NCBI GenBank assembly: GCA_030390025.1
Contig: CM059431.1
Span: 141,610,001 to 141,674,000, forward strand
Direction: 5' to 3'
DNA length: 64,000 bases
Origin: Squalus acanthias
Lineage: Eukaryota
In this document: positions 3,580-47,479 of the stretch, piece after piece
Layout: every line of letters begins with the position of its first letter
Numbering within the stretch: the first letter of the stretch is position 1
Position numbers and translations under genes: made by a program
Notes under the pieces: model-generated
The model's input: the letters and a program-made list of their open reading frames with translations, nothing else
What the model was told of the DNA's origin: nothing
The model's database searches: none

Positions 3580-4380
3580 GAATCATAGAATCACAGAATG
3601 ATACAGCACAAAAAAAGGCCATTCGGTTCAATCGTGCCTGTGCCGAATTTCTGGAAGAGCGATCCAATTACAGCCACTCCCTGCTCTTTCCCCATAGCCC
3701 TGCATTTCTTTCCGTTTTAAGTTTATATCCACTTCCCTTTTGAAAGTTACTATTGAATCTGCTTCCATCGTCCTTTCAGGCAGTGTGTTCCAGATCATAT
3801 CAACTCGCTGTGTAAATACATTTCTCCTCATCTCCACTCTTGCTCTTTTGCTAATTACATTAAATCTGTTTCCATTGGTTACCGATTCTTCTGTTAGTGG
3901 AAATAGCTTCTCCTAATTTATTCTATCAAAACGTTTCATCATTTTGAACACCTCTATTAAAGCTACCCTTTTCCTTCCTTGCTCTAAGGAGAATAATCCC
4001 ACATAACTGAAACCCCTCATCCCTGCTAACATTCGAGTAAACCTCCTCTGCACCATCTCCAAAGTGTGGTGTTCAGAATTGGACACAATGCTCCAATTGT
4101 GGCCTAATCAATAATTTACAGAGATTTAGCATAACTTCCGTGCTTTTGTATGCTGTGCCTCTATTTACAAAGCAAATTATCCCGTATGCTGTTAACAGCT
4201 CTATCAGCTTGTCCTGCCCCCATCAAAGTTGTGTGTCACTGAACTCCCAGGTCTCTCGGTTCCTGCACCCCCTTTAAAATTGGACTATTTAGTTTATAAA
4301 TAAGCTCCTCGTTCTTTCTTTTAAAATGCATCAATTCACACTGCACTGCATTACATTTCATCTGTATGTGTCCCATTGTA
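3580..4380 (-). mobile_element. CR1 LINE 3' fragment
   Basis: ORF 3628..3837 (FTQRVDMIWNTLP); (catagaat) tail. Similar fragments at ~6345-6506/7272-7440, 7875-8330(+), 8960-9100 and 9620-10090. Confidence 0.85.
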
Positions 4381-4424
4381 AGATCTCCATTTGTACCACT
4401 GAAAACCTTTCTACAACGCTGGCA

Positions 4425-4499
4425 TCAGACTGTTGTAGGTTGGACCTTGGGGATTGGTGTTTGAGCGGGGTTGTTCTGATCAGTAGGCTCATGGGAAGG
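4425..4499 (-). CDS. MS4A-like gene last coding exon (Pro-rich C-terminal tail)
   Basis: Strong acceptor ctcttctccttcacag|CCT TCC CAT...GTC TGA; PSHEPTDQNNPAQTPIPKVQPTTV*. Confidence 0.75.
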   Translation of the reverse strand, partial: PSHEPTDQNNPAQTPIPKVQPTTV

Positions 4500-7400
4500 C
4501 TGTGAAGGAGAAGAGCATTTTTGGAAAACAGTAAATAAATAAACAGACCAATAAATAAAAAAGCAAACATCCAAGATGAGGTGAATGATGATGATTTCCT
4601 TCTCGTCATGTGTGAAATTCCTCGATAAATGAGAATCGTGCCATACGTTATAATGGGCTAGAATTTACTTTAACAACAATGGTGAGGCTGTTATTTATTC
4701 ACAAATCAGAGAGCTACTTCGAGCCAGCACAGATGCGCAGTTCAACGCGAAAACCTGGAGTTACTGTCCGAGATCCAGCGCTATTCGCTGAGCTGCTCGA
4801 AAATGGCATCTGCTGTCTGGTTCTCCATTCAATTATACTCAGCTCTGTGAATTTCCTGTACTTGCAAAGTAGAGAGAGACTTATATCGCCACAGAAAGCT
4901 AGGGATTGTCCATATCTGTATAAGTATCATTTTTAAAAGTGAGATAATTTTTAATTCCTGCCAAATTAACTTGTACGATTGTGGAGTCTCATTCCTTCAG
5001 ATTTTAATTGTTGATGGAGATTATTTTTAAAATTAAAAATGTAAAACAATTAGTTTATCTTTCTTTCTGTCTCTTTTCTCTTTCTCTCTCTGAATCCAAT
5101 CTTTCTTTCCCTTTCTTTATTTCGCTTTCAATACCTGATTGACGTTGAATAAACTATTCTAACTTAGACTTCCTGCTTCAGAATTTGCACTGTTCAATCT
5201 TCAGTCATTCAAAATGATTGGTGAAGGAGATGCACAGTTGCTTGCTCGGTTCACACAGGGCCAATATGCCCTGTAGTGGGCGCCACAGAGTTTTAATCTA
5301 CTACTGCAGCTTCCGGTACAAAAGGTCATAGAAATTAAATGGGCATGGGCAAGTCTAACGAATAGTGGTCGCCGATCGTCCACTGGCTTTAGTAAATCCT
5401 GGCACAGTATTTCTCATTGCAATATCTGTGGGAGGTGAATACCAATTTCTGAATTTTTAGAGTCCATACTCAGCAGAGCCGAGGAAAATACTTGTTAATT
5501 TGGCCTTGTAACTACATACCTTATTGACGAGTGTTTTGGAATGGTTCCAGAACTCCTTGCCTACGAAAATGGAAAGGACAATTGATACCAACAGCTCCAG
5601 CATTCCCAGCAGGTAGAGAACCAGTACGAGATGGAAACGGTATATCTGTGGATCAGTCGCAAGAACATGTTCAGGGCAATCAGAAATAACACGTATTTCA
5701 GACAACGAGAACTGTCGTACATAGAGCGACAGCACAATTCATGGAGAATTTTAAATCGAAGTGTAAAAATTAGCCAATTTTGGAGCAAGGAAGAATATTG
5801 CGAGTGAAATTGATCTCCACCAGTAGAGCTGAATGGGCATCAGAAATCCGTTTTACGCTGCTCCCGATTTTCCTCTCCAATTTACTTCACTGGAAAAGAA
5901 AATCGGGAAGAGTGTAACGCAGTTATTTCCAGCCCCATTGTCTCAATATTAGGCGACCTCCCACAGGGCATCAAGAAAATGTTTTCAGCTGAAATGTTAT
6001 TTCATTGTGCAGGAGGGAATTAATGGACCAAGGCGTAGAACTATAATTCAGCCCCCATTTGCAAGTCTGAATTTTGCCGCTAGATATCAAATCTGACTGC
6101 AATGTTGGAAGTCTAGAAGAACAATTCATTGAAGCTTTTCTTCACTCCAGGCTGAGGAAGGGGCAGCCGCAAAACGCAGGCGCTACAGCGCCGCCACAGG
6201 CCGGCTGGTGCAATGACCGCATGACGTCCGCTCATTTCAAACGTGAACAGATGGAAATATAACTTGAAATGTTATAGCAGGTTGTGCACATAGAATGTAC
6301 GAACAGACCGAAGATTGCTTTAATCTCCACAGTACCAATTAATAGACTCATAGAATGATACAGCACAGAAGGAGTCCAAATCGGCCCATTGGGCCCTTGC
6401 TTGCTCTTTGAAAGAGTTAACCAATTAAACACACTCCCCTGTCCTTTCCCCATAGTCCCGCATTTTTTCATTCAAGTATTTATCCAGTTCACATTTGAAA
6501 GTTATTGGCTCAGAAATTAAACAGTGAGGGTTCCCGCGGGGGTAAGGAATCCCCGCGATATCGCACTCCGCGCCTACCTTTTTGCTCCGGGCCGACACGA
6601 ACTTTAGTTTGAAACTCTCTCTCTCTTGGAACCGTGCAGTGCTTGCTTGCCCCAGAGACGCAATTAGTTCGTGCGAGCTCTGGGATCACGTGATTCAGTT
6701 AGAGCCAATGGCAGCACACCATCTTTCATTCATAGTTTTGACAGGAAGACCTGTCAAAGCTATGAATAGTACACCCCCCCCAAAAGAACAGCTAAACCTC
6801 AATTAAATTTAAAAAAAGCCATCACATTAATAAAATAAGTATAGTTAAATAAATTAACCACTATAAACAAAAAAATACATTTTTGAAAAAATTTAAAATC
6901 TTTTTTAAAAGTTATAAAAATAAACTTACCTTTCTTTAAAGTCTCTAAAAAAGATAAACCTGTTGAAAAAAAAATTAAATAACACTTAATTAACTACTTA
7001 CCTTGTTAAAAGGGGGTCCTACGCCTGCTTTCTTTATGTGTAAAATGTTCACCACTTACCTGCGCATTCAAAGCTGAAAAAATAACTAAGTGCACTGCGT
7101 GCGCACAGCCTGTAGCGCGCACGCGGTTCACTTAGGAACCGCCCCCTTTTGAATTCACGAAGTGCCGGTTTCCCGCGCATGCGCAGTGCATGCAGGAAAC
7201 CGGCAATTGGAGACCTGATACGCGAGAGTACACAGTGCGTACTCTCGCGTATTAGGTCTAATTTTCGGGCCTATCTGCTTCCACCACTTTTTCAGGCAGT
7301 GCATTCCAGATCATAACAAGCCGCTGTGTAAAAAACGAATTCTCCACATTTCTCCGCTGGTTCTTTTCCCAATTATCTTCAATCTGTGTCCTCTGGTTAC

Positions 7401-10400
7401 CGACGCTCTGCCACTGAGATCAGATTTTCCTTATTTACTCTTTAAATAAACATGATTCATACGATCCATGTAATACATTTTTTTCTTAGCTATTTGGAGA
7501 TGTTAAGCAGTTTATGTTGCCACTCTAAAGATTTATATTAACTTCAAGCTTGTTTCCTGTATACATGACTTCACAGGATGTCCCCTCGTCCCATTGAAAC
7601 GCTGAATTGACAGGGTATTGTGGTTACACTTCGTAAGATGGAAACCCAAAGCGGTATTAGAACGCCTCCTAAAGAGATTTCTCGCTGCTTCTCTCTCATG
7701 CTGATCCGCCGATTGGTTTTATTACGTCTGTTTGTGCCTGGGAAATGGAAAGTGACGCAAAGCTGTACTGTGAAGGGCAATCTCAATTGTTTTTTTGTAG
7801 AAAATTATTTAATTGTTCAATCAACAATAACACTGCCAGAGGGAGTACTGATTTAAAACTGTTATTCATGTATTAAGGGAGTTATGCTAATCCTGTATAA
7901 AGCATTGCTTAGGATTCATCTGGAACACTGTGGCCAATACTGGGCACCACACTTTCGGAAGGATGTCAAAGCCTTAGAGAGGGTGCAGATGAAATTTTAT
8001 AGAAAGTTACCTTGGATGAAAAACCTCAGTTATGTGGATAGACTAGAGAAACTGGGGTTGTTCTCCTTAGAGCAAAGAATCTTGAGGGGAAATTTGAAAG
8101 AAATCTTCAAAATCATGAAGGCGTTTGATGGATAAAATAAGGAGAAACTGGTTCAAGTGGCAGAGCGCTCGGTATCCAGAGACACAGATATAAGGTCATT
8201 GGAAAATTAACCAGAGGCGACGTCAGGACAAAAATTATGCAACGAGTTGTTATAATCAGGAATGCACTGTCTGAAAGGGAGGTGGGTGCAGATTCTATAA
8301 TATCTTTTTAAAGGGAATTAGATAGATACAGTTCTTTACTTACAGCCAAAGTAATGGGCCACGAATCGGAGTCACTACCAGAAGGCAAAGAATAAGTGGG
8401 GTACTAACCTCGATGTAAATGCAAAACAGGACCAGATTGACTACGCCAAGAAGGGCACTGAACATATTCAGCGCCAGACAGGTCGCCACCTTCGAAAAAT
8501 AAGCAAAAGATTATTTAAATATCTGAATTTGGTGAGATCTTCAGAAAGCCATTAGTTGTCTGGGCGGAAAATCTCATTCAAAGCTCCCATCTAAAGACAT
8601 TAATGAGTTCAAAATTCCATACCAACCGGATTTTTTGCAATAAAATAGTGTCATAGAATCTTACAGCACACAAGGCGGCCATTCCATAATGTCTGTGCCG
8701 GCTCTTTGAAAGAGTTGTCAAATAAGAGTCTTTTATTTTCTTTCTGGAAATAAAATTTGACCAAGTATGGCAGGATATGTAGTTGGCATGAAAGACAAAT
8801 TTACGTCAAACCCATTTGTAGAGGACGGCGTTTTTCTATTTTGGATTTCGCAGTGCAATCTGAGCAGTGTGAGTCCTGGGAAATTGAAGTGATCAGGGAT
8901 AGAGTCAAATGAACAAACAACGAAACAATTACGTAGACAATCTCGTCTAGACAGTCATTGGAACACAGGAGTTTAGGAACAGGCGTAGGCCATTCAGCCA
9001 CTCGAAACTGTTCCTTCAATCAGTTAGATTATTTCGGATCTTTAGGTTGACTCCATCTATCCGTTTTGGGTCCCAGTAGCTTTAATACTCTTGCCTAGTA
9101 AAAGTGCAATGAGAGCAAGTTTCTGGAATTACAACTGGAACTAATGGGTAAAAGGCATTGGGGCAGATCTCGAAATGGGCTGCCGACTCGTTTTACTACC
9201 TACGAATCCGAATTTACCCCCGGTGAGGGTAAAACTGGCATTATCGATTATGAAATCAATGGAACTGAATATCGGGCCGGCTGTCTAACGGGTGACTGAT
9301 GCAGGACCGTTTGTTTTACCACCCTGCTATTCTCCAATTTCACCCCCACGACCTACACAATGATACGGGTTACCACATATCTGAACAATCCCAGTTAAAG
9401 GTAACTTTTCCAATACGTCAATAATCAGCCCAGCAACCAGTATTTCAAATTAGAGCAGTATTCCGTGCAATGGACTGCGTTGTTTAAATGGAGAGTCATT
9501 GTGGAGATACTTACAAGGCCTGTAGATGATGTCTTTCCCACAATACACCACAGGCTCCCAGAAAGTATAAGCTGGGAAAGAAATGTGAGAAATCAATCCC
9601 ACATGATACTGTGTATAATTATTGGAACACAGAATCACACCCAGGTCATTCAGCCCCTCGAGCCTGTTCCGCCCGTTAATTAGATTATGACTGATCTGCA
9701 ACTTGACTTCATTTACCTGCCTTGGTTCCGTAACGCTGAATAGCCTCATGTAACATACATCGAGCATCCTCAGTTTTGAAATTTTCAATTGACCCCTACC
9801 CTCAACAGCTATTGGAGGGAGATAGTACCAGATTTTCAATATCCTTTATGAGAAGAAGTGCTTTCTGACATAACACATGAATGGCCGAGTACTAATTTTA
9901 AAGTTATGTTCTGGTACCCACACCAGAGGGAATAGTTTTTCTCTATCAACCATATTAGATAATTTAATCAACTTAAACATCTCAGTTAGATGACCCCTTA
10001 ATCTTCTATACTCGAGGGAATACAAGTGTAGTCTATGCAACCCGTCCTTATACTTAAAATAAGTTTAACCCCAGTATCATTCTGGTGAACTATAACAACA
10101 GTCTTAAATTCTGAAGCGCAATATTCTGGCTGATTATTCACAGACCATCAAACGTTGAATACGTTATCAATAAACAAATAACGATCTCGACACATGAGGA
10201 TTTTAAATAAATCTGGGCGCAGATATTATGGTTTCTTCCTTTAACTTAGGAATTCTCGTTCGTCTGACATCCCATTTGTTCGCTATTTTAACGGGAATGT
10301 TATTCGCTTTAGAATAGTTGATGCCTCCGGTAAAATAGCGACAATCAGAAGAATATTAAAGCAAGGCGCTGCAATTCAATGCATAAAATTGCAACAAAAA

Positions 10401-13400
10401 GTCTAACATCACATCCAATCAATTCTAACCAGATTTAAATTCCTCCAAACAGTTTCTACTACAGACATTGGACAGAAACTCACCGACAGCCCGCCACACA
10501 ACTGTGTTCTGTCTGCTCCTGCCACCAATCTCGGATTCAGAATTAAAGCGATCCAGATTATTATGAGAAGTATTCCCAACAGAATCTGCATAATCTAAAA
10601 GAAAACAAGTATCGCACTGTGGAATCAAGATAACATGTAGAAAACCATACAAAATATAACAGTGTGCGTGAGAGCGAGAGAGGGAGAGGTAGCGAAAGAG
10701 ATGGAGAGATGGATGAGAGACAGAGAGAGAGGGAGAGGAGGAGAGAGAGAGATCAAGGTAAGAGACAAGTGAAACTTTGTTGAAAGCTGACTGAGATGAT
10801 TCGATTAACACATTGTTAGAATGTTTTAATATCATTTAAATGGTCAAGGTGTCCCAGCATTACTTCCGTTTGTAGATTTATTGTTAGACCAGATGTGGGA
10901 GAAAGGGAAACGTGAATCTTGTTTCTTGTGTGAACCATAAACAGTTTGAAAACCCAAGGACACAAATTGATAAGAAACCCAGGTCGGGAAAATGGCTGAT
11001 AAGAGATTATTTGCCAAAACGCTATATACCACAGTAAAAGATAAAAATTGACCTACATACTGTATTATAAACAAAGATTGTAGAACAGAGGCAAAGTCCG
11101 AAAAATAACCTAGAAATTCCTCTCTGGGGGTGACACAAAACGGGCGGTATCGGAGCGGCGGCCCAGTTATACACAGCGCCTGATATTCAGCCATACTGAC
11201 TGCAATAGAACTGAATATCAGGCCCTGCGAATACCGCACCCGATCCGATACCGAGACGAATTTCTAGGAAAAGCGGGGTAAACACCAAAAAATGCGGCAT
11301 CAGCAAAACATGCAACTAAGTAATACGTAGACACAGACCAAGCTTTTACAAGGCACTAATAAAAAGTCTGATGGAATATGCTTCACTTGCATGGATGAGT
11401 GCAGCTCCAACAACACTCAAGAAGCTCGACATCATCCAGGAAAAAAGCAGCTTGGCTGGCCCCCCATCCACAACTTTAAACATTCACTCCCTCCACCACC
11501 AGGGTACCGTGGCTGCAGTCTGTACCATCTACAGGATGCAATAGAGGAACTCGCAAGGCTTCTTCGGCAGCACCTCCCAAACCCGCGACCTCTACCACGT
11601 AGAAGGGCAAAGGCAGCAGGTACATGGGAACACCACCACCTCCAAGTTCACCTCCAAGTCACACACCATCCTGACTTAGAAGTAAATCGCCGATCAGTCA
11701 TCGTCGCTGGGTCAAAATCCTGGAACTCCCTGACTGACAGCACTGTGGGAGTACCTTCACCACACGGACTGCAGTGGTTTGAGAAGGGGGCTCACCACCA
11801 CCTTCTCAAGGGCAGTTAAGGATGGGCAATAAATGCTGGCCTTGCCAGCGACGCGCACATCCTGGAAAGAATATTTAAAAAATAGAACCCAGTTGCCCCC
11901 AAGGGTTCTCGGATTGGTCAGGAGCCACGCAGCCGCGCGAAAGGCCTGGAGGGATGGAGCTGGTCGCCTGGGAAACACGAGCTGGGTGGTTCTCTTGGGG
12001 GTGGGACCGCTCTCTGTGCCACTTGGAAGCCCGCAGACATGCAGGCAGTCTAGAGCGGAAAGTGATCACTCCAGTCCGGGGAATCATGTTGCATTAATTA
12101 CGCTCAGCAGGTCAGGCAGCGTCCGTGGTGAGAGAAACAGAGTAAAAGAATGTGGATGTCATCTTGTCATTTACTATAACACTGTAGAACAGTTACATAA
12201 AACTTAATGGCCCAGAAATTAAACAGTGAGGGTTCCCGCGGGGGTAAGGATTCCCCGCAATATCGCACTCCGCGCCTACCTTTTTGCTCCGGGCCCACAC
12301 GAACTTTAGTTTGAAAGGCTCTCTCTCTTGGAACCGTGCAGTGCTTGCGTGCCCCAGAGATGCAATTAGTTCGTGCGAGCTCTGGGATCACGTGATTCAG
12401 TTAGAGCCAATGGCAGCACACCATCTTTCATTCATAGTTTTGACAGAAAGACCTGTCAAAGCTATGAATACTACACACCCCCAAAAGAACAGCTAAACCT
12501 CAATTAAGTAAAAAAAAGCCATCACATTAATAAAATAAGTATAGTTAAATAAATTAACCACTTTAAACAAAAAATTAAATTTTTGAAAAAATTTAAAATC
12601 TTTTTAAAAGTTCTAAAAATAAACTTACCTTTCTTTAAAGTCTCTAAAAAAGATAAACCTGTTGAAAAAAAATTAAATAACACTTAATTAACTACTTACC
12701 TTGTTAAAAGGGGGTCCTACGCCTGCTTTCTTTATGTGTGAAATCTTCACCACTTACCTGCGCGTTCAAAGCTGAAAAAATAACTAAGTGCGCTGCGTGC
12801 GCACAGCCTGTAGTGCGCACGCGGTTCACTTGTGAACCGCCCCCTTTTCAATACACGAAGTGCCGGTTTCCCGCGCATGCGCAGTGCATGCAGAAAACCG
12901 GCAATTCGTGATCTAATACGCGAGAGTACACAGTGCGTAATCTCGCGTATTAGGTTTAATTTTCGGGCCAATACTGTTACTGTTCAATGTAATATAGCTT
13001 GATTTTATAAAAAAAAACACACTCGTGCAAGAATCATGAGCTGAAGTATTGTCACTGGACTAACAACCCTTTTTTACGACAATAACCATGGATGAAATTC
13101 TCCAGCACACATATGCTTCTGGTCCACCACCACAAACATTCACTCCGTCCACCACCGTGGCTGCAGTGTGTACCAGGATGAACTGCAGCAACTCGCCAAG
13201 GCTTCTTCAACAGCACCGCCCTAACCCGTGAACTGCACAACCCAGAAGGACAACGGCGGCAGGCGCATGGGTACACCATCAACTCCACTCCAAGTCACAC
13301 ACCATCCTGACATGGGCAGATATCTGCCGTTCCTTCATCGTCACTGGGTCAAAACCCTTGAGATCCTTGGCTGACAGTACTGTGGGAGCACCTTCACCAC

Positions 13401-13943
13401 ATGGATTGCAGCTGTTCAACAAGAAGGCGCACCATGATTTTCTCAAGGGGAAATGGGCTGGGAAATAAATGCTGACCTTGCTAGCGAGGCCTATATCCCC
13501 AGCATTAATTTTAAGAAGTATAGCTCATAAATATACTCAGGAACATATCTCCAGGTTGGTAGTCGCAGTGAAATTCTACATGTGATCACACTGAAGTTAT
13601 TTATAATTTCGCTACGAGTAGTGGCGGGAACTAGCCTCCATCAGCTAATTGATGAAGTCCCTACACTTGCGGCTCCAACCCATTTTACGCAAGTCGTGTT
13701 GAAAGTAAAACATTGCATATTGAAATTGTGATCTATTTGAGAAGGAATAAATGAATAATATAAATGCTTTCGTCTTACCCCCAGAACTTTCGCTTTTCCC
13801 ATCTGAATTCCTGGACAGTTTACTCTTCTGGTTGGTGAATGAGTCTGGGAGCCTCCCCGTCTCACCAGGGCTTCCCTTGTACCGGATTGTGGGATAATAT
13901 TGGGACTGATGACGCTTACTTCTATGCCCAGTGAAGTTGCCAT
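4425..13943 (-). CDS. MS4A (CD20/FceRI-beta family) membrane-spanning 4-domain protein, 6 coding exons, 204 aa
   Basis: Exons on the minus strand: 13943-13779, 10594-10484, 9571-9515, 8489-8409, 5645-5520, 4499-4425. Total 615 nt, every intron GT..AG and phase 0. Spliced product: MATSLG...MGKAKVLG|IMQILLGILLIIIWIALILNPRLVAGADRTQLCGGLS|LILSGSLWCIVGKTSSTGL|VATCLALNMFSALLGVVNLVLFCIYIE|IYRFHLVLVLYLLGMLELLVSIVLSIFVGKEFWNHSKTLVNK|PSHEPTDQNNPAQTPIPKVQPTTV*. It shows MS4A hallmarks as I recall them: KxLG|xxQI, a 57-nt IxSGSL exon, LxLNxxS in TM3, LE in TM4 and a Pro-rich tail. Confidence 0.88.
4655..5405. mobile_element. Older Harbinger-type MITE in the last MS4A intron
   Basis: Imperfect TIR GGGCTAGAATTTACT / AGTAAATCCTGGCAC; GC-rich ends and AT-rich core. 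Confidence 0.55.
5520..5645 (-). CDS. MS4A-like gene coding exon 5 (TM4)
   Basis: gatccacag|ATA TAC CGT...AAT AAG|gtatgt; within track ORF 5457..5735; LLGMLELLVSIVLSIF. Confidence 0.88.
6507..7271. mobile_element. Non-autonomous DNA transposon (Harbinger-type MITE), copy 1
   Basis: Imperfect TIR GGCTCAGAAATTA/TAATTTTCGGGCC; near-identical to 12209-12969; splits a CR1 3' fragment; many internal palindromes. Confidence 0.85.
8409..8489 (-). CDS. MS4A-like gene coding exon 4 (TM3)
   Basis: cttatttttcgaag|GTG GCG ACC...ATC GAG|gttagt; VATCLALNMFSALLGVVNLVLFCIYIE. Confidence 0.88.
9515..9571 (-). CDS. MS4A-like gene coding exon 3 (TM2, 57 nt)
   Basis: tttctttcccag|CTT ATA CTT TCT GGG AGC CTG...GGC CTT|gtaagt; LILSGSLWCIVGKTSSTGL. 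Confidence 0.9.
10484..10594 (-). CDS. MS4A-like gene coding exon 2 (TM1)
   Basis: ttttcttttag|ATT ATG CAG ATT...CTG TCG|gtgagt; 111 nt; hydrophobic IMQILLGILLIIIWIAL. Confidence 0.88.
12209..12969. mobile_element. Non-autonomous DNA transposon (Harbinger-type MITE), copy 2
   Basis: TIR GGCCCAGAAATTA/TAATTTTCGGGCC; 3-bp TSD AAT (12206-12208 / 12970-12972). Confidence 0.87.
13779..13943 (-). CDS. MS4A-like gene coding exon 1 (N-terminal cytoplasmic region, ends GKAKVLG)
   Basis: ATG at 13943; upstream acceptor cttattcactaag (exon starts 13971); donor GGG|gtaaga at 13778. Part of track ORF 13641..14003. Confidence 0.85.
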
Positions 13944-15568
13944 GTTCCAAATAAGGACTGGGAAATCGACCCTTAGTGAATAAGAAGCTGGTTCCACAGA
14001 CATTAGAATGCCAACATTTCACCTAATAATGACTAAACAACACTCTATATAACTTTATCTCTGGCAATGGAAATTTGTGACATGTTAGCCATCCTGGCAC
14101 CGAATCTATAACAATTTTCCACTAATTCAATGCATTTCGATTGAAGCTATCAATTTGACACGTTCATGTCATGTTCATAAGGTTATTTTCTTTGAAACGT
14201 CAGGACTGCTTCGTTTTCACGAATCACATGTTGTGGATTTTAATAATTCAGTGAAAAAAAGAAAATAAACTAAACCTCTGAAGGAAACTTCTACCCAGTC
14301 GTGAAATTTAATCGGGGCAATGGATTTGGGCAAAATCGATGATCGTATTTTTCCTGCGGTGATGAATCGCCTTGTTCTGCCTGATATTCGAACTGAAATC
14401 GCAAGCACCTTTTTTGTATCGTTAATTTCGTTATAATTACAATCCATAATAAATTTCCAAGCACACCTAGGCAATTCTTTCAATCCAGCATAGCGCAAAT
14501 CTTCCCACTTAATTTTCATCCCGTTCTCTATATTTTTAACAATAAAGCACTGACCAAATATATATTATAAATGTATGAGGTTACACTGAGCTTTGAATTA
14601 AAATCAAACCTAAGTACATCAATGTAAAAATGTGTGTCTTATTTCGGCTGAATGCTAAGACGTAGTTTTAATTCTGCATTGTGTTCAATGCAAATTGAAT
14701 AATCAGTTATTAAAAATAATCTTACGGGACATGTTCCTTGTGTTTGCCGAACAGACACAGATTGCGGTGCAAATAGCTTTACTCTCTTCTAATTTCAAAA
14801 AGCAACATTACCTCAAGCAGGCATTGTAATTTACTTCTGTCGCTACAAAGGACATTGCTGCAATAACCAGTGGAGAAATATAATGCATAGAAGTTACAAA
14901 AAACAGGCCAGTCAGCCTAACGGGCCCCTGTCCGTGTTTAACCTCGAAACGAGCAAATGGCAGCAAAACAAAATTTGAGCGAAAATAACAGGTTTGAAAC
15001 CTGATAACTACCTTCAGTGTATCTACATCTGATCCATACATTCAGTCTCTGGCGCAGACTCGATGGGCCGAATGCCCACCTTCTGTGCTGTACTATTCTC
15101 TGATTCTATAAGCAGTTGTGAAGTTTACAGCCACAGCTCGGAATTTCTATCCATAATTATAAGCGCAGGAAATTCTTATCAATTCACATGGGATTTTCCA
15201 TCTGATCCCCTGGACTGCTATTGATCGACGGAGGGGTCCGCAGAGGGGTTATCCAGTTTACGTTTTCCTTATTGGCCCTTTGTTTTTTACGCTGGAGTTT
15301 TGCCTCTCCCAGGGGTTTACATGGCTGCCGGGGTGGGCGGAGGCACGGGCGATGATGCTCCGGCCAGCGTGGTGTGGGGAAGGCTTGACGGAGCATCTGT
15401 TCTTTTCCTGCCCACACATTTCGTATGTTTGTGTGATATTTTATGTAATGGTTGGACTGCATTTGAGTACAGGACCTCAAATGACAATTTCGGAATGAAG
15501 ATATCCATCAATCCGATAACATACCGTAATATATATGCAGATAAATTTGTCACTATTCTATATAAGTT

Positions 15569-25015: not shown

Positions 25016-25971
25016 GTAGATTCCGAGAGTTGCGGTTCAGCACATCTGGATACTGACTCCAAGTCTTCGGATGATATCTCCAATGGACAGTTGTGAACGA
25101 GGAAGGGGAGAGGGCGAAGCTTAAATATTTGGTGAAACGCAGAAGGTAAAATTGCGGGGACAGGGAGGGCTGCCATTGCTGGAGATACTGCGGCTGTATT
25201 TGGATAGTTATAAATGGAATCAAGCGGGAGCAGTCCCATTGTGATGGAATCCCAACCTACACCAAAATATGCAGCTGCTGAAACCACTGGCTGTGGTTCG
25301 GTTGCTATTGACAATGTGCAGAACCTGCTATAAACACAGCCCTGACCCAGATAATGTCATGCGGACGTGCGTGTCCCGCCGTCTTAGACACACATTGTCG
25401 ATTAACACCTAAACCGAGATGGGTTATTGACTCGTCAGATGCACGGAGTGAATGTGAGAACAGGAAACAGAAAAATTAACATTTAGACTCTCTTGCAGTC
25501 ATGCACTTATTTAGTAAGAATATCCTCTTCACACCATCTACCGCTCTTTGATAGTCAACTTTATTTCCACAACTAAATGTATCACATTGTGTTATGGAAA
25601 CTAAACAAAACTAACACGGCAGTATTGTGTTCAGTAGCAGAGTGCTAATCCATTTACCTCTACCTAAAGTGTACTCAGCCCAGAGAGCGGTCGATTGCCT
25701 GCATAGACTAACCATTGTAAAGGTCATTTACTCTGAAGTCTCCATAATAGATGAACCAGAATTAAGCGACAGATCATCATGCGGTTCAAATTGAACATAG
25801 GCGGGAACAGAAAACAGGTGTAACTGATAATTGGACAATAGCGGGTGAACACTGCTTTCATTCGTATGACAATTCGCGTTCCAATTTTAGTTTGAGTACC
25901 AAATGCTTTCCTTGAAATGTATAACATTCCGATAAAATAACCATCTGAGTAATATTTTCAGGAAACTCGGA

Positions 25972-26468
25972 GGGGTGTAATATTGGCCTTGGGTGGGAAT
26001 AACAATCAGCTGGTATCGCATGGGTCGCCTGATATATGTTCCGCCCGATATTCAGTCCCATTGCCTTCAATGGTGGTATCGCATGGGTCGCCTGATATAT
26101 GTTCCGCCCGATATTCAGTCCCATTGCCTTCAATGGTGGTATCGCATGGGTCGCCTGATATATGTTCAGCCCGATATTCAGTCCCATTGCCTTCAATGGT
26201 GATGTCGCATGGGTCGCCTGATATATGTTCCGCCCGATATTCAGTCCCATTGCCTTCAATGGTGGTATCGTATGGGTCGCCTGATATATGTTCAGCCCGA
26301 TATTCAGTCCCATTGCCTTCAATGGTGGTATCGCATGGGTCGCCTGATATATGTTCCGCCCGATTTTCAGTCCGTGAGGCATCAAATGAAAATCACACGG
26401 TTCCTATAACAGTCCGGAAATGGGATTCCACCTGCTTTGCTTCACCTCACATGTCCTATTTCACCCCC
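25972..26468. mobile_element. Short MITE whose core is amplified into a 63-bp tandem array
   Basis: TIR GGGGTGTAATA / TATTTCACCCC; absent from the paralogous position in the other duplication arm (~16120-16140). Confidence 0.65.
26011..26373. repeat. 63-bp minisatellite, ~5.8 copies
   Basis: Unit TGGTATCGCATGGGTCGCCTGATATATGTTCCGCCCGATATTCAGTCCCATTGCCTTCAATGG. Confidence 0.95.
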
Positions 26469-28226
26469 GAAGCGTCTCTCCTCTGATAGGACAAAGGGTA
26501 ATTTCCAGACTCACATTGCAGGTCAGTAATTCCGGCCATGTTTCGTTCAAATACCTGTTGTTCTCCTCTGAATTGAAATGCTTAGAACAGGTCCAGATAA
26601 AATGAAGGGATTGGACTCATGCTGTGAGATGCGATTGACCCAAAGAATGCACAGAAGGTACGACATAAAAGCAGGCCAATAGAGTCCGAATTACAATACC
26701 AGTGAACATGTCCCAAACCGGCCCCGAACGCGAGCCAATCTAATTTCCGTTAGCTCCGGTAGTATTACCCATGTGTCCCTAAAGACTCTCGGCTCTAAAA
26801 CAGGAGGCAGAGTCCCGTTGGGTGATCGATAATCTCAAGTAAGTTATGCTGACTTCATATTGAAAATCTGACGGGGCCGTATAAAAGCCTTTTCGATATC
26901 GTCCGATTTTGCTCAAAGTTAAAATATATATAAAAATGTGATAAGTTTATCTGCATAAATAGTACAGCATTTTCTCGGATTGTTGCATATCTTCAGCCTG
27001 AAAGTTTCAGTGACGGTCATGTTTTAAATGTAATCCAACCATTACCCTGTGTAATGATAAGAATTTTCTGTGCTAACATTTATATATAGAAATTCCAAGC
27101 TGTGGTTGAATCCTTCACAACCGGCTGTTTACTGAATATAAGTACAGAGTTTGTAACAAGGTCCTTTTTTAAAAATTCTCTTTTCGGTAATTTGTCCGAT
27201 TTGAGGTTAAACGCCATCAGTGAGTCGTGAGGACGACAGGCCTGTTTTATTGTGTTGTAACTTCTATACGTTTCTATTTCTATACATTGTTTTTAGATGA
27301 TTGTTGTTTGGAACGTCAGAAGTAAATTAAAATGCCTGCTCAAGGTAATGTTGCATTTTTAAATTAGAAGAGAGTGAAGCTATTTGCACCAAAATCTCTC
27401 TCTCTCCGGCAAATAGAAGGATCTTATCCCGTCAGTTTATTTGTAACATCTGATTATTCAATTTCTACTTCACACAAAGTAGAATTAAAACAATTGCCTT
27501 AACTTGTATATGTTCAACCGAATTAAAACACTATTTTTTACATTGATGCAATTATGTTAATTTTTATTTAAATGGACAGTGTAACCTCATACATTAATAA
27601 TATTAAGTTTTGAAAAGTGTTTTATTATTATAATGATAGACAACAGAATGTAACTTAAGTGGGACGATTTAAACTCAGCTCTATTGGAAGATTAACCTAA
27701 ATGTGCCCCGGGAAACATTATTTTGGTTGATAATTGCAGCGAAATCTTCTTCAAAAACAAGACGCTAGCGATTTCAGGACGAATATCAGACAGCAAAAAA
27801 AAAACGAAGGCAGCAACAATATGCTGATCGATTGGGGCCCAAATCATCCCTGAGTCTGAATTTCAAGACTGGGGAACAAAGATTTCTTCAGAGGTTTCTT
27901 TTTTTCTGCTTTTATGAACTAACATGTTAAAATCCTCAACACGCGAATTGTGAAAACGAAGCACTTGTCCAGATTGAAAGAAAATAACTTTATGAACACA
28001 TCAAAAAATCATCACATTTATAAGTACAATTGAAATTAATTGAATTCGAAATAAACAATTGTAGATTCGGTGCCAGTTTGGTTAAAGCGTCACAAATTGC
28101 CAGTGTCAGGCTGTAATATCATAAAGAGTATTGTTTAATCATTATTAAGCGATATGTTGGCATATTAATGTGTGAAGCACTTCCTTATCTTCACTAAGTG
28201 TTTATTATCCGGTCTTTACTTGGAAC

Positions 28227-29892
28227 ATGGAGACTTCACTGAGCACTGAAGGAGGAGTCATCAGTGTCCATATTAACCCGCAATCCGGTTCAAGGAAAGT
28301 CCCAGTGAGACGGGGAGGCTCCCAGACCAGAAGAGTAACCGGTCCCGGAAATCAGGTGGGAACTCCGAAAGCACTGGGTGTAAAATTAAATCATTTCTAT
28401 TATTCTTTTACTCCTTCTCAAGTGGATCACAATTTCAATTGGCAATGGTCTAATTTCAAGACGTCTTGAAAAAATTGGGTCCAGTGACAAGCGAATGGGA
28501 CATCATTAATTAGCTGATCAAGATTCATTCCCGTCTCTATTCCTAGCGAAATTAGTGAATTTAAGGGGAAGCTAGATAAGCACATGCCCGAGAAAGGAAT
28601 AGAAGGATATGGTAATAAGATGAGCTGAAGAGGGGCGGGTGGAGGTTGATGTGGGGTATAAATGCGGGCTAGACCAGTTGTGCAGAATAGTCTATTTCTG
28701 TGTTCTAAACGCTCTGCAATTACATTTAATATAAATTATGAACACCTTCATTAAGATCGGATGTACGATTTCGCTTGGAATACTAACCCGGGAATATGGC
28801 TGCATTGGAAGTGAGTCGCGGGATATGGGCGTCACTGGAAAGGCTGGAATTTATTGTCCATCCCTAGTTGCCCTTGAGAAGATGGTGGTGGACCATCTTT
28901 TGGAACCGCTGCATTCCGTGTGATGACGGTATTCCAACAGTGCTGTTAGGGAGGGAGTTCCAGGATATTGACGCAGCGGCTTTGAAGGAACAGCGATATA
29001 TATCCAAGTTGAGATGGTATGTGACTTGGGGGTGATGCTGTTACCATTTACCTACTGCTCTTGTCCTTTTGTGGTGATCACGGTGTGCAGCTGAAGAAGC
29101 CTCGATGAGCTACTGCAGTTCAACCTGTAGATGGTACACACTGCAGCCATGGTGCGCCGCTGGTGGAGCGAGTTGATGCTTAAAGTCATACGTGGTTTTC
29201 CAACGATCACACTCACTTTTCTAGGAATTTTATTTGTCTCGATCCTTGATTACTCTCTTTCCCACCTCCTCTCCCTCTCTTGCACGTGCACATTTACATG
29301 TTGGTTGATTTTATATAGTTTGCGTTTATTTTGCATAGTACGATATTTGTTCTCTTTTAGGTCACTCTGATTATTTTGGTAATGTTTTATAATTTTCTGG
29401 ACGCCTATAATTCTGAACTGCATTTATATAGCGCCTTTTCACGACCAACGGACGTCTCAAAGCGCTTAACAGCCAATGAAATACTTTTTGGCGTACAGTC
29501 TCTGTTGTAATGTGGGATACGCGACAGCAATGTGATAATGACCAGATAACCTGATTTTGCTATGTTGGTTGAGGGATAAATATTGACCAGGACACCGGGT
29601 CTAACTCCCCTGCTCTTCTTCGAAATAGTGCCATGGGATCTTTTACGTCTACTTGAGAGAGCAGACGGGGTTTCGGTTTAAAGTCTCTTCCGAAAGACAG
29701 CACCTCTTCAAGTGCAGCATTCCACAGGATTGTCAGCCTAGATTTAAGTGCTCAAGTCCCATGGAGTGGGACTATGAACCCACAGCCTTCTGACTCAGAG
29801 GCAAGTGTGCTACCCACTGAGCCACAGCTGACACACCGTGTCCGATATCGGTGGCAGGAGAACACAGAACACACTGGTGGAACAGTCTGTCT
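28227..29892 (+). pseudogene. MS4A-like pseudogene (inverted paralogue; exons 1-2 only)
   Basis: Exon 1 28227-28379 (METSLS...GTPKALG|gtaaaa) aligns with exon 1 of the intact gene. Exon 2 starts at 29361, has an indel frameshift, is split by a SINE (~29416-29834) and ends ...VAGEHRTHWWNSLS|gtgagt at 29892. Homology stops ~30150, and I found no exons 3-6. Confidence 0.85.
29416..29834 (-). mobile_element. tRNA-derived Deu-domain SINE (SacSINE1-like) inside pseudogene exon 2
   Basis: Head GTGTCAGCTGTGGCTCAGTGGGTAGCAC, Deu-like core AAAAGATCCCATGGCACTATTTCGAAGAAGAGCAGG, tail AAAGGCGCTATATAAATGCA. Confidence 0.85.
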
Positions 29893-30239
29893 GTGAGTGT
29901 CCATCCAATGTCCTTAGCAAAACATGTTTGAAGGAATTTTGCTCTTCTTAAATTGAATTGTTGAGAGGATGCACTTTTTTGGACGGGTAGCTTCGTATAT
30001 TACTCTGATTGACTTTATTTCATCGGAGCAGTAAACTCTATTATAAAACGATTAACACTCCCGTTAAAATAGCCAACAGATGGAATGTCAGTAGAGCGGG
30101 AATTGCGATGCTAAAGTCAGAAACCATGGCAGAGAAATTGCGGTCGAAGCCGTAACCCCGGAATATGCTTCCGACCCAAGAAACATTTCAGAATTTCCCT
30201 CAATGCCTCCTGACTGCGGAGAGTTGCGGTTTCAGGCCT

Positions 30240-33273: not shown

Positions 33274-34639
33274 ATGGGGCAATCAACTATTCTGCTGATC
33301 AAAGAGATTTACTACCCGATTCTCGCGGCCGTCTGTGTCCCTGGTGAGCCATTTTATCTTGTTTGTTGTTAATCGGTGTTAATTGTATTCATGTACATAC
33401 AACCTGCTTTGATAATGTAACGAGCTTTCCAGATGTCAGCATTACACTTAATCCGATAACCTTACTATTTTTACAATGTTCTTCGAAGCTCCAACACAAG
33501 GATTTTCGCGGATTTCCGAAACCGTCTTGTTCCCAAGTGCAGAGTGAGCGCTGCAGCAGCTCATTAAAGTGTGTTGGTGGGTTTTCCAGGTAATGGCTCC
33601 AATACTAATCCTGTTCACACACTGCTCCGTGTGGATAATCACACTGAATGGAGTAAAATGCTCTCTGCAGGCATCTCCATATATATTTCACTGAGACACT
33701 GGAATATTATTTCTCTCCTCTCTCTTTCTTCCAGCGAATTTGGTGACAATTGTGATTCTCTCCCGAGGAAACTGCGGCCTTTCCAAGTGTATTTCTGTCT
33801 ACATGGTGGCCATGGCAACAGCAAATCTACTGGTCGTGATGTTCAATGTAATATTGTATCATATTTTCAATTATCGCTTTCCACTTTCATTCCTGTACCA
33901 CACTCCCGTGTGTAAGTTCATTCTATACATGACTGCTGTCACCCTCGATTTGTCTGTTTGGTTCACCGTCTCCTTCAGATTTGATCGATTTGTAGTTATC
34001 TGCTGCCAGAAGTTTAAAGCAAAGTATTGCACCGAGAGAACTTCGGCCGCGGTTAAAACAGCGTTCACGGTCCTAATCTTTTTAAAGAACATCCCTGATT
34101 TTTTTGCCTTTCAACCTGAACAATTAATTAACAAGGAGCAGTGGGGCTGCCGGAAAAGTGTGACTTTTGTTTCCTCACCTCCAGGTGTTGCCTACATCTG
34201 GTTTCACAGCGCCTGGGGCGTTTGGCTTCCTTTTACTTTAATTGCCTTTTTTAATTATTTGACAGTCAGTCTTATTTTAGTGGCCAGCAGAGCCCGCAGG
34301 GGTCTCCGGGGTCACAGAAGTGAAAATCAGAGCGATATAGAGATGGAGAGCCGAAGGAAATCCATCATTTTACTCTTCACTTTATCGGGCAGTTTTATAT
34401 TGTTGTGGCTGACAACTGCCGTGAGTATGGTAACTACCAGACTGACAAACCCCACCTATTATCGAGGTGACCGCACAGACCCTGGATATATCGCCACTGA
34501 AACCGGAACAATGTTGAAGTTTTTGAGTTGCTTTCAAAACTCGTGTATTTATGTAGCGACCCAAAGGAAATTCAGAGAAGAGCTGAAGAAGGTGCTTAAA
34601 TCCCCCTGGGCACTCATTCAGAGAATAGTTAGAAAATGA
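33274..34639 (+). CDS. Class A GPCR, GPR139/GPR142-like; two exons, 324 aa
   Basis: Exon 1 33274-33343 (MGQSTILLIKEIYYPILAAVCVP, G|gtgag); intron 33344-33734 (ctttcttccag); exon 2 33735-34639. 975 nt open frame with 7 hydrophobic segments, DRF in TM3, NSCIY in TM7 and FREEL helix 8. Confidence 0.92.
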
Positions 34640-38189: not shown

Positions 38190-40330
38190 CCAGGTTCTGG
38201 CCATGTCGACAGTTTTCAGGTCTTAGTTTCACATTGATCTCTTTCTTGCACAGTTTGGAAGATTATTCTTTCATGGTTCTGTTTAATCAAAAATTTAAGG
38301 TTAAGCAAAATACTTTGTTAGTTTGTTAACCAATTCCCCTTTGAAACGGATCCAATCTCTTCTTTCAACGAATTTATCGATTCGCTGTTAATATAATTTC
38401 ACCGATCGAAATTTAAAAGCGGAAACAAAATAAGATTGATATTTTATTAATTCAAAGTGGGGCTGTCTCCGCCTATTCATTTGATCGACTCTTCCCGCTC
38501 TCCTTCACATCATGGCCCCGTTCTCCTGGTTCCCTTTCTTTCTGTCGCATCCCACACTCTGCCAGTTCCCAGTCTCACGGGTTCCCGCAAATTGCCAGAT
38601 CCCAGTCCCATGGTTTCCCGCACTCTGCCAGATCCCAGTCCCACGGGTTCCCGCACTCTGCCAGATCCCAGTCCCACGGGTTCCCGCACTCTGCCAGATC
38701 CCAGTCCTATGGGTTCCCGCACTCTGCCAGATCCCAGTCTCCCGGGTTCCCGCACTCTGCCAGTTCCCAGTCCCATGGGTTCCCGCAATCTGCCAGATCC
38801 CAGTCCCACGGGTTCCCGCACTCTGCCAGATCCCAGTTCCACGGGTTCCAACACTATGGCAGATCCCAGTCCCACGGGTTCCCGCACTCTGCCAGATCCC
38901 AGTCCCACGGGTTCCCGCACTCTGCCAGATCCCAGTCCCACGGGTTCCCGCACTCTGCCAGATCCCAGTCCCACGGGTTCCCGCACTCTGCCAGATCCCA
39001 GTCCCATGGGTTCCCGCAATCTGCCAGATCCCAATCCCACGGCTTCCCGCACTCTGCCATATCCCAGTCCCACGGTTTCCCGCAATCTGCCAGATCCCAG
39101 TCCCACGGGTTCCCACACTCTTCCGGATTCCAGTGCCACGGCTTCCCGCACTCTGCCAGATCCCAGTCCCACGGGTTCCTGCACTCTGCCAGATCCCAGT
39201 CCCACGGGTGCCCGCACTCTGCCAGATTCCAGTCCCACGGGTTCCCGCAATCTGCCAGATTCCAGTCCCACGGGTTTCCGCAATCTGCCAGATCCCAGTC
39301 CCAAGGGTTCACGCACTCTGCCAGATCCCAGTTCCACGGGTTCCAACACTATGGCAGATCCCAGTCCCACGGGTTCCCGCACTCTGCCAGATCCCAGTCC
39401 CACGGGTTCCCGCACTCTGCCAGATCCCAGTCCCACGGGTTCCCGCACTCTGCCAGATCCCAGTCCCATGGGTTCCCGCAATCTGCCAGATCCCAATCCC
39501 ACGGCTTCCCGCACTCTGCCATATCCCAGTCCCACGGTTTCCCGCAATCTGCCAGATCCCAGTCCCACGGGTTCCCACACTCTTCCGGATTCCAGTGCCA
39601 CGGCTTCCCGCACTCTGCCAGATCCCAGTCCCACGGGTTCCTGCACTCTGCCAGATTCCAGTCCCACGGGTTCCCGCAATCTGCCAGATTCCAGTCCCAC
39701 GGGTTTCCGCAATCTGCCAGATCCCAGTCCCACGGGTTCCCACACTCTTCCGGATTCCAGTGCCACGGCTTCCCGCACTCTGCCAGATCCCAGTCCCACG
39801 GGTTCCTGCACTCTGCCAGATCCCAGTCCCACGGGTGCCCGCACTCTGCCAGATTCCAGTCCCACGGGTTCCCGCAATCTGCCAGATTCCAGTCCCACGG
39901 GTTTCCGCAATCTGCCAGATCCCAGTCTCACGGGTTCCCACACTCTTCCGGATCCCAGTCCCACGGGTGCCCGCACTCTGCCAGTTCCCAGTCCCACGGG
40001 TTCCCGCACTCTGCAGTTCCCAGTCCCACGGGTTCCCGCACTCTGCCAGATTCCAGTCCCACGGGTTCCTGCACTCTGCCAGTTCCCGACCTCCTCTTTG
40101 TTCGAGAATGGCCGCTAGAATATCAGAGCGATAGAGTTCAAAGGAAATTTGTGATTGTCGTCACGAGAAGTTTTGGGCTTGCCTCATTTGGACTGTGTGG
40201 ACACATCTGGCAACCTAATCATAGAAAGAATATTTCTGCACTTTGTATATCACACATCTCAGCCAGAGATTCTAGGATTTCACAATTCCAGTTTTGAAGA
40301 AAATCTAGAAAATCGTGCTTTCTAAATGTA
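38190..40330 (+). pseudogene. Heavily decayed GPR139-like remnant interrupted by a 33-bp minisatellite
   Basis: Ordered motifs across frameshifts: VLAMSTV (~MVAMATA), FNQKFKVK (~CCQKFKAK), INSKWG (~INKEQWG), HHGPVLLVPF (~HSAWGVWLPF), then the repeat array, then EYQSDRVQRKFVI (~ENQSD...RKSII). Confidence 0.45.
38550..40087. repeat. 33-bp GC-rich minisatellite, ~46 copies
   Basis: Unit CCAGATCCCAGTCCCACGGGTTCCCGCACTCTG; a variant unit recurs at 495 bp (15 units). Confidence 0.97.
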
Positions 40331-46464: not shown

Positions 46465-47324
46465 CTAGTTAAAATTTCTTTGATTTTTAAACAATCTTCG
46501 AATCAGTGTCCAGGGAGATTTCAGCACCTTCTTCAGCTCTTCTCTGAATTTCCTCTGGGTCGCTGCATAAATACACGGGTTTATACAGGAACTCAAAAGC
46601 TTCAGCATGGCTCCGGTTTCAGTGGCGATATAGGCTGGGTTTGTGCGGTCACCTCGGTAATAATTGGGGTTTGACAATCCGGTAGTTGCAAAACTCACAA
46701 CAACTGTCAACCACAACAGTACAAAACTGCCCGAAATAGTGAAGAGTAAAATGATGGATTTCCTTCGATTCTCAATCTCTGGATCGATCTGATTCTCACT
46801 GCTGTGACCCCGGAGTCCCCTACGGGCTCTGCTGGCCACTACAATACGTCGGACAGTTAAAGAATTACACAAGGCGATTAAAGTAAAACGAAGCCAAACT
46901 ACCCAGACGCTGTAAAACCAGTAGTACGCTGCACCTGGAGGTGAGGTAAAGAAAGCCACACTTGACCGGCAGCCCCACTGCACCTTGTTAATTATTTGCT
47001 GAGATTCATATGCAAACATAAAGGGAATGTTCTTTAACAAGGTCAGAACAGAGAACATTGTTATAATCGCGACCGCGGTTTTCTTGGTGCAATGTTTTGT
47101 TTTAAACTTCTGGCAGCAGATAACTACACATCGGTCAAATGTGAAGGAGACGGTGAACCAAATAGACAAATCGATGGTGACAGTAGTGATGTATAGAATG
47201 AACTTACACACCGGAGTGTGGGACAGGAATGAAAGTGGAAAGTGATAACTGAAAATATGATACATCATTACATTGAAGATCATGACCAATAGATCTGCTG
47301 TTGCCATGGCCACCATGTAGACAG
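46465..47324 (-). pseudogene. GPR139-like GPCR, 5'-truncated (TM1 and exon 1 lost)
   Basis: Close paralogue of 33274-34639 from VYMVAMATADLL to the stop (DRC, NPCIY, FREEL). Homology ends abruptly at 47324, and upstream lies a CR1 RT fragment (FADDT on the + strand). TM5 LPF has become LRF. Confidence 0.8.
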
Positions 47325-47479
47325 TTTTCAGGTCTTTTTGCTGATGATACCATGATAGTTGGGAAAGCAAAGTGTGTGGAGGACGCAAAGAATCCCCAAA
47401 GGGATATAGATAGGCTGAGTGAGTGGGCAAAAATCTGCCAGATGGAGTTTAATTTCTGAAAATGCGAGGTTATCCACTT

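Follow-up and report, generated by a model that had tools for sequence, protein, structure and literature searches.

A window of 64,000 nucleotides (nt) of the Squalus acanthias genome (contig CM059431.1, here C7, positions 141,610,001 to 141,674,000) carries on its minus strand, at window positions 4425 to 13943, a six-exon gene for a predicted four-pass membrane protein. Our analysis suggests that this gene is, on balance, functional, that it belongs to an MS4A/CD20-like protein family which multiplied recently in sharks, and that the branch to which it belongs lost its second outer loop through a splice shift in exon 4.

Gene model and predicted protein

All coordinates given below are window positions. 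Six exons with AG/GT ends, all in phase 0, were read from the sequence, and joined they give 204 codons and a stop. Exon 1 (13779..13943, 165 nt, 55 codons) spans the predicted cytoplasmic N-terminal tail up to a K-x-L-G motif ahead of the first transmembrane segment (TM1) and aligns with residues 1-55 of a catshark homologue; exon 2 (10484..10594, 111 nt, 37 codons) holds TM1, the first outer loop and a hypervariable motif before TM2; exon 3 (9515..9571, 57 nt) holds the end of TM2, with SGSL, and the inner loop; exon 4 in its short form (8409..8489, 81 nt, 27 codons) holds TM3 and ends on an internal donor, GAG/GTTAGT; exon 5 (5520..5645, 126 nt, 42 codons) holds TM4, with LE, and the start of the C-terminal tail; exon 6 (4425..4499, 75 nt, 24 codons and the stop) encodes a PTTV ending. 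The lengths of exons 1, 2, 3 and 5 are shared by all 15 paralogues fetched. The introns measure 3184, 912, 1025, 2763 and 1020 nt and contain repeat fragments; the invisibility of the gene to an open reading frame track reflects merely the shortness of its exons.

Four hydropathy peaks were found (Kyte-Doolittle 19-residue means 2.82, 1.50, 2.15 and 2.71), the second of them marginal, in agreement with the four hydrophobic segments of a preliminary description of this DNA. Both ends of the protein would lie inside the cell. The first loop is short, and in the 204-amino-acid (aa) form TM3 and TM4 are linked by about 7 residues. Neither tail of the model contains tyrosine, and the protein therefore has no immunoreceptor tyrosine-based activation motif of its own. 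The PTTV ending is constant in nine of nine full-length last exons while the middle of exon 6 varies, a feature that was picked after it had been seen.

Copies in the genome

Searching the genome with exon 1 and its flanks gave 40 scored matches from 49 candidates, of which 25, here called A type, show 85-100% identity and the other 15, called B type, 73-76%; matches to the other exons numbered 33 (exon 2), 24 (exon 4), 32 (exon 5) and 26 (exon 6). Sixteen exon-1 matches lie on C7 between 137 and 145 Mb and the remainder on small contigs, where some copies are probably haplotype duplicates. Fourteen of the 15 B matches stand head-to-head with an A match 11-18 kb away, and the window holds one such pair. 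The gene had been described as lineage-specific, a view that our results support, with the addition that it is one of dozens of copies, which that description had missed.

Relationship to the MS4A family

An exon-5 profile built from 11 copies was searched against 1.84 billion representative proteins and gave two matches. One of them (P0001), a repeat protein, was discarded as a chance match; the sole true one (P0002) is the uncharacterized protein LOC119966860 of the catshark Scyliorhinus canicula (XP_038654752.1, 227 aa), and a homologue is in this way already known, as an unnamed RefSeq model. The 204-aa model aligns colinearly with it over 186 residues at 36% identity (E 3e-37 in a pairwise comparison), in the same exon-sized blocks and with one long gap, of 22 residues, at the junction of exons 4 and 5. 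The catshark protein differs from the window model in retaining a 22-residue Cys-paired loop and a Trp-Trp motif before TM2 and in having another C-terminal end, and it resembles copies of the B type more, at 61-68% across exons 2 and 5.

Comparison of the catshark protein with known families revealed a match, below the profile's cut-off, to positions 1-155 of the 156 of the Pfam CD20 profile (PF04103; E 5.6e-5). Of its seven matches among solved structures, five are to CD20 or to the beta chain of the Fc-epsilon receptor, with weak E values of 0.13 to 1.3, the best being 0.13-0.14. The L-G/Q-I, W-x-G and SG motifs of CD20 (MS4A1) and Fc-epsilon-RI beta (MS4A2) align in register with it, as do the loop cysteines of Fc-epsilon-RI beta, whereas the window protein is without the second outer loop and its cysteines. 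In the Atlas the features of the catshark protein score 0.94 to CD20-family clusters and its structural TM score is 0.60 to an MS4A6C-like model, the nearest clusters bearing the names MS4A15-like and MS4A6C-like. A single-sequence structure model of the catshark protein shows four long helices with a mean pLDDT of 57; a fold search with this low-confidence model returned nothing at E 0.001 or better. Within the dogfish genome, an exon-2 profile of the family matched six MS4A-type exon 2s with a probability of 95.5 (E 1.6e-8 in a pairwise comparison). The 36% alignment, the CD20 matches of the catshark protein and the exon-2 profile match together indicate a divergent CD20-like family member, most likely an MS4A, as the preliminary description had proposed.

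Named MS4A genes have a phase-0 exon pattern with a 57-nt exon, and L-G/Q-I at TM1, SG(S)L in TM2 and LE or LG in TM4 are family-wide motifs; a Cys-paired second outer loop is usual, not universal. The motifs on which the preliminary description relied, K-x-L-G followed by Q-I, the 57-nt SGSL exon and LE in TM4, were all found in the window exons, and one MS4A-type exon 2 of this genome likewise measures 111 nt in phase 0. The checks that had been suggested gave a mixed outcome, with no Pfam CD20 match for any of the six exons when these were tested one by one and, over the range covered, no contig across a predicted junction. A scan of the genome with PF04103 listed 16 matches, the window locus not among them, which include sarcospan-like exons (C10) and MS4A-type exon 2s (C5 and C2617), the locus names being our reading. 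Conventional MS4A-type exon 2 clusters (L059, L060 and L062-L065) were observed elsewhere in the genome, at 5.56-5.78 Mb of C5 and on C2617. Further searches were negative: none of 8000 candidates in the protein database matched the exon-5 alignment, the catshark protein as query found only itself among 306 candidates, exon 1 matched none of 27 candidates, exon 5 had no usable match in the Atlas, and the 11 entries returned for the exon-2 profile among solved structures included no MS4A.

Analysis of the motif before TM2 revealed Leu-Cys-Gly-Gly in the window protein, which departs from the aromatic-Trp-x-Gly with which MS4A proteins enter TM2. The reading RTQLCGG, earlier singled out as unusual, is present as described and represents one state of a hypervariable site. 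Many paralogues have Trp-Cys here and several unrelated ones have Leu; the broken B neighbour in the window and the catshark protein have Trp-Trp, and Trp is invariant in the six MS4A-type exon 2s. Positions 85 and 86 are among the fastest-evolving sites.

Excerpts of the published work show that MS4A genes are known in sharks, with three from dogfish expressed sequence tags, and that zebrafish underwent a recent expansion to 21 genes (PMC2826416). Ascidian MS4A clades are reported there as expanded and under positive selection (10.1101/2022.08.15.492342), and the ancestry of MS4A is described as little studied (PMC7776563). As far as these excerpts go, the zebrafish and ascidian expansions resemble the present one in their clustered recent duplicates and rapid change, and differ from it in that selection is reported on the outer loops and helices are conserved, whereas the shark branch has one loop deleted and helices that evolve at the pace of neutral DNA. 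Our literature search found no paper on this shark family or on a loop-less MS4A branch; supplements lay outside that search, and the gene lists of PMC2826416 could bear on the point.

Probable loss of the second outer loop in exon 4

The 22 residues missing from the window model coincide with the single long gap in the catshark alignment and correspond to the 3' part of exon 4; a separate loop exon hidden in intron 4 was sought by tblastn and rejected, none being found. The ancestral exon 4 is preserved in five copies, measures 147 nt and encodes a loop resembling that of the catshark, with Cys-x5-Cys in four of the five. One of these copies, on C1065, gives a clean 226-aa model. Aligned with the catshark protein of 227 aa, this model shows 43% identity and one gap of 3 residues; aligned with the window model, its one difference in length is a gap of 22 residues. 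In the window, exon 4 measures 146 nt to the same GTAAGT donor at 8343, one base being missing, and splicing at this old donor would give a frameshifted product of 187 aa. The 204-aa frame is obtained from an internal GT donor 65 nt upstream, the use of which would remove the second outer loop. The skipped piece (8344..8408, minus strand) is what remains of exon 4's ancestral 3' part; it has 65 nt in place of the 66 nt of intact copies and lost its base near 8382, as judged from an alignment of 12 copies and from the 147-nt copies. The preliminary description, which spoke of an intact gene of six phase-0 GT-AG exons with a very short TM3-TM4 loop, was right about the six exons and the open 204-aa frame, though the gene is not simply intact; it did not see that exon 4 carries a frameshift relative to its ancestor, that the frame depends on the choice of the internal donor and that the short loop of that form is a derived loss, which follows from choosing the donor at 8408.

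All 21 copies found with a whole exon 4 were read, 16 with the deletion (146 or 145 nt, the deletion class) and five of 147 nt. Each of the 16 deletion-class copies has GT at nt 82 of exon 4 (15 GTTAG, one GTTTG), while the 147-nt copies have ATTAGG (two) or a weaker GTTATG (three) at the same place and two of the four B copies read have AT. In the tree the deletion-class copies group together as a single clade (support 96/96), whose sister group is made up of those 147-nt copies that the tree included; the B copies and the catshark protein fall outside. The old donor is damaged in three of 11 copies, these three being otherwise clean in exons 1-5, and the skipped 65 nt acquired a second deletion (the six 145-nt copies) and stops. 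Rescue of old-donor splicing by a shifted exon-5 acceptor was considered and rejected, no AG lying in a suitable place.

We suggest that an A-to-G change made the GT donor 66 nt inside exon 4, and that a one-base deletion in the skipped part later put the old donor out of frame, so that only the short splice would yield a full protein. The skipped 65 nt would then have decayed like an intron, and the branch would have multiplied in segmental duplications, many copies dying recently. The product would keep four helices, with about 7 residues between TM3 and TM4 replacing the Cys-paired loop. New donors inside exons that turn exon into intron are a described process, to judge from the parts of the reports available (PMC3538075, PMC3565874); the process here appears to be the same, with the difference from those partial accounts that a frameshift seems to have fixed the new splice in place before it spread through a gene family by duplication.

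Two further changes of exon 4 were observed among the copies. A B-type copy (L083, G000:C7:137446500-137449300) has an exon 4 of 108 nt, in frame, and a last exon that looks frameshifted; here the outer loop was shortened a second time, independently and through a deletion. In four other copies (L038, L039, L040 and L056), which fall on two separate branches of the tree and all have other defects, exon 4 is physically deleted; splicing exon 3 to exon 5 would keep the frame and yield a three-helix product.

RNA contigs

Among sequencing runs recorded as RNA, none contains this stretch. Three contig sets of one study, presumed to be RNA, were looked up over positions 4300-10660, a range that leaves exon 1 and the first junction outside. 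No listed joint matches a predicted intron within this range, and exons 2-5 are without cover; the look-up gives no evidence either way on these junctions. One contig of 200 nt (depth 2.8, one mismatch, two unplaced letters) covers exon 6 with its 3' flank (4305-4501); the nearest paralogues differ from it at three to five letters or by a deletion. It ends where exon 5 and intron 5 would diverge and was not counted as a junction.

Selection on the deletion-class branch

Selection was analysed in 11 of the 16 deletion-class copies, compared in full, whose summed intron tree amounts to about 0.56 changes per site; the four copies without exon 4, the 147-nt copies and five deletion-class copies fetched for exon 4 alone were excluded. 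The introns, 4850 nt in all, carry 197 indel events. In the coding sequence of 540 nt there are four gap calls, which form two cancelling pairs without net change of length, against 15-22 expected (P 9e-4 to 4e-6). Five stops were seen where neutrality predicts a mean of 12 (P 0.016), and every one of them sits on an end branch, with none on inner branches (P 0.002-0.004). The exons behind the frameshift are likewise preserved: exon 5 has no internal stop in 32 of 32 genome matches, and exon 6 keeps its length and ending in nine of the 12 copies compared, the other three being copies without exon 4. Dead copies do take indels in the same exons, as seen in B-type exon 4s of 139, 139 and 136 nt and in a 14-nt exon-6 deletion in exon-4-less copies. 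Under the short model six of the 11 copies are clean in exons 1-5, the window copy among them, and the latter has no stop, indel or damaged splice site in any of its six exons. This deficit of indels and stops, found also downstream of the frameshift, makes it probable that the short splice kept the branch functional, and the 204-aa model is probably the form kept by selection. The ratio of nonsynonymous to synonymous changes (dN/dS) is 1.46, a value reached in nine of 518 neutral simulations and so modestly beyond neutral; with a substitution frequency as in introns, it bears out the earlier view of a fast-evolving gene.

Alternative explanations

Several observations weigh against a functional, CD20-like gene and deserve to be set out together. 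The Pfam CD20 score of the catshark protein, 23.7 bits, lies below the cut-off of 27.9, and the conserved aromatic-Trp before TM2 is lost in the window copy. The deletion and the donor represent one inherited event, not 16, and some copies are near-identical pairs that may be assembly haplotypes. Constraint on amino acids is near nil, since 67 residues are invariant where neutrality would leave 65; helices have gained six new charges against 11 (P 0.09); and substitutions are as frequent in exons as in introns (p-distance 0.126 and 0.128). The selection statistics take no account of gene conversion. Rate variation among sites accounts for most of a site-model signal (M2a over M1a, P 5e-7), and for this reason strong site-specific positive selection is not claimed. 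All four nearest copies are broken, and the window copy keeps a perfect GTAAGT old donor that would compete with the internal one.

These last two points speak for the possibility that the branch lived through the short splice while the window copy is itself a recent or dying pseudogene, either silent or spliced mostly at the old donor into the 187-aa frameshifted product. The Trp-to-Leu change in the motif fits such a copy, and one dead since its split from the nearest four would still look clean with a probability of about 0.16, a rough figure. We consider this a minority possibility, though a serious one, against which stand the six exons free of stops, indels and splice-site damage and an exon 6 that is whole, unlike that of the three nearest copies. 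The near-neutral substitution pattern could also mean that the frameshift killed the ancestor, that the deletion-class copies are pseudogenes copied passively in duplications of an array of G-protein-coupled receptors (GPCRs), and that the 204-aa frame arose by chance from a cryptic donor. Exons that diverge as fast as introns, the absence of measurable amino-acid constraint and the position of the copies amid a very large seven-transmembrane (7TM) family (4639 candidates, of which 130 were scored as matches with at least 72% identity) would all be expected; the deficits of indels and stops, the stop-free inner branches and the indels that the same exons take in plainly dead copies would not, and this explanation, already strained under the evidence so far, appears highly improbable. 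A last possibility, to which we give marginally less weight still, is that both donors are used and that the frameshifted long form matters, through another hydrophobic stretch in place of TM4 and the tail or through expression tuned by decay. The long form is open for 187 aa in the window copy, its stop lies just 41 nt before the last junction, and GTAAG is retained at the old donor in 13 of the 16 deletion-class copies. Because an early stop interrupts the long frame in the skipped part of seven of the 16 copies and the six 145-nt copies are shifted again, the long frame is not conserved.

Proposed function and significance

If the gene is a functional loop-less MS4A-like copy, its job may be that of an accessory subunit embedded in the membrane, whose helices would mediate oligomerisation or pairing with a partner receptor, for which the Fc-epsilon receptor beta chain is the model, and which would be anchored by its constant C-terminal T-T-V, a sequence that fits a class I PDZ-binding motif. 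This is our tentative first choice among functions, though we hold it at somewhat less than even chances. A role as a chemosensor or regulator of calcium flux, of the kind reported for rodent MS4As, acting through the variable first loop is a more doubtful second choice; a chemosensor role is reported for mouse MS4A1 in the part of PMC11026480 available. A fuller picture, of a loop-less MS4A class made by a frameshift-locked splice shift, present in more than a dozen copies within an orphan GPCR array, serving as PDZ-anchored partner of those receptors and with its remaining outer loop and helices under diversifying selection, we regard as unlikely as a whole; a partnership with the neighbouring GPCRs is suggested solely by position.

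The larger outer loop of CD20 bears antibody epitopes. MS4A outer loops are reported, in the excerpt available, as the variable parts under positive selection (10.1101/2022.08.15.492342). A multiplied branch that has lost the larger loop and stayed in frame would, if our reading is true, separate loop-dependent from helix-dependent functions of MS4A and provide a natural experiment on MS4A function in the absence of the second outer loop. The case would also be a clean, dated exon truncation by a new donor. For annotation, homology-based models will label such copies as pseudogenes with a frameshift, and ab initio ones will overlook the loss of the loop. If the old donor alone is used, the gene is an ordinary dying paralogue.

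Genomic setting and other features of the window

A likely 5' non-coding part of the gene occupies 13944..14824 on the minus strand, with a CAG acceptor 14 nt before the ATG and a candidate upstream exon donor at 14811. The acceptor is retained in 12 of 12 close copies; the donor region could be aligned in seven of these, with the GT kept. The candidate upstream exon (14811-14824, minus strand) contains an ATG that is followed immediately by a stop on this gene's side; in the B-type counterpart (about 27333-27345, plus strand) the ATG could read in frame into exon 1, adding nine residues.

The broken head-to-head paralogue of B type lies at 28227..29892 on the plus strand; as read from the sequence, its exon 1 has a 12-nt deletion and its exon 2 is split by an insert of about 425 nt, and none of its exons 3-6 was seen in the window. 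Some 1.4 kb of upstream sequence is common to this paralogue and the gene (28554-27173 and 13604-14976, respectively; 73%). Exon 2 was considered as a piece of a transposon and this was rejected, its match at 29841-30127 being the paralogue and not a repeat. Two members of the very large 7TM family, both rhodopsin-family genes (Pfam 7tm_1), lie at 33695-34639 on the plus strand and at 46465-47448 on the minus strand, and a short upstream coding exon seems to be present near 33275-33345; the family is presumably GPR139-like. Pyrin-domain matches in the genome number 11, of which seven lie on C7 at 141.95-144.50 Mb, in the same region as the MS4A-like copies. A pyrin fusion of this gene was rejected, the window containing no pyrin match and the nearest lying about 280 kb beyond its end.

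A 777-nt element occurs twice in the introns (6498-7274 and 12200-12972, 95% alike) and has an inner palindrome near 7211-7259. It is a young repeat; the intron-4 copy is missing from the 11 paralogues compared, and the element has deep cover in all three contig sets. Tandem repeats at 38417-40297 and 25858-26486, with units of about 30 and 63 nt and long open frames on both strands, are most likely minisatellites.

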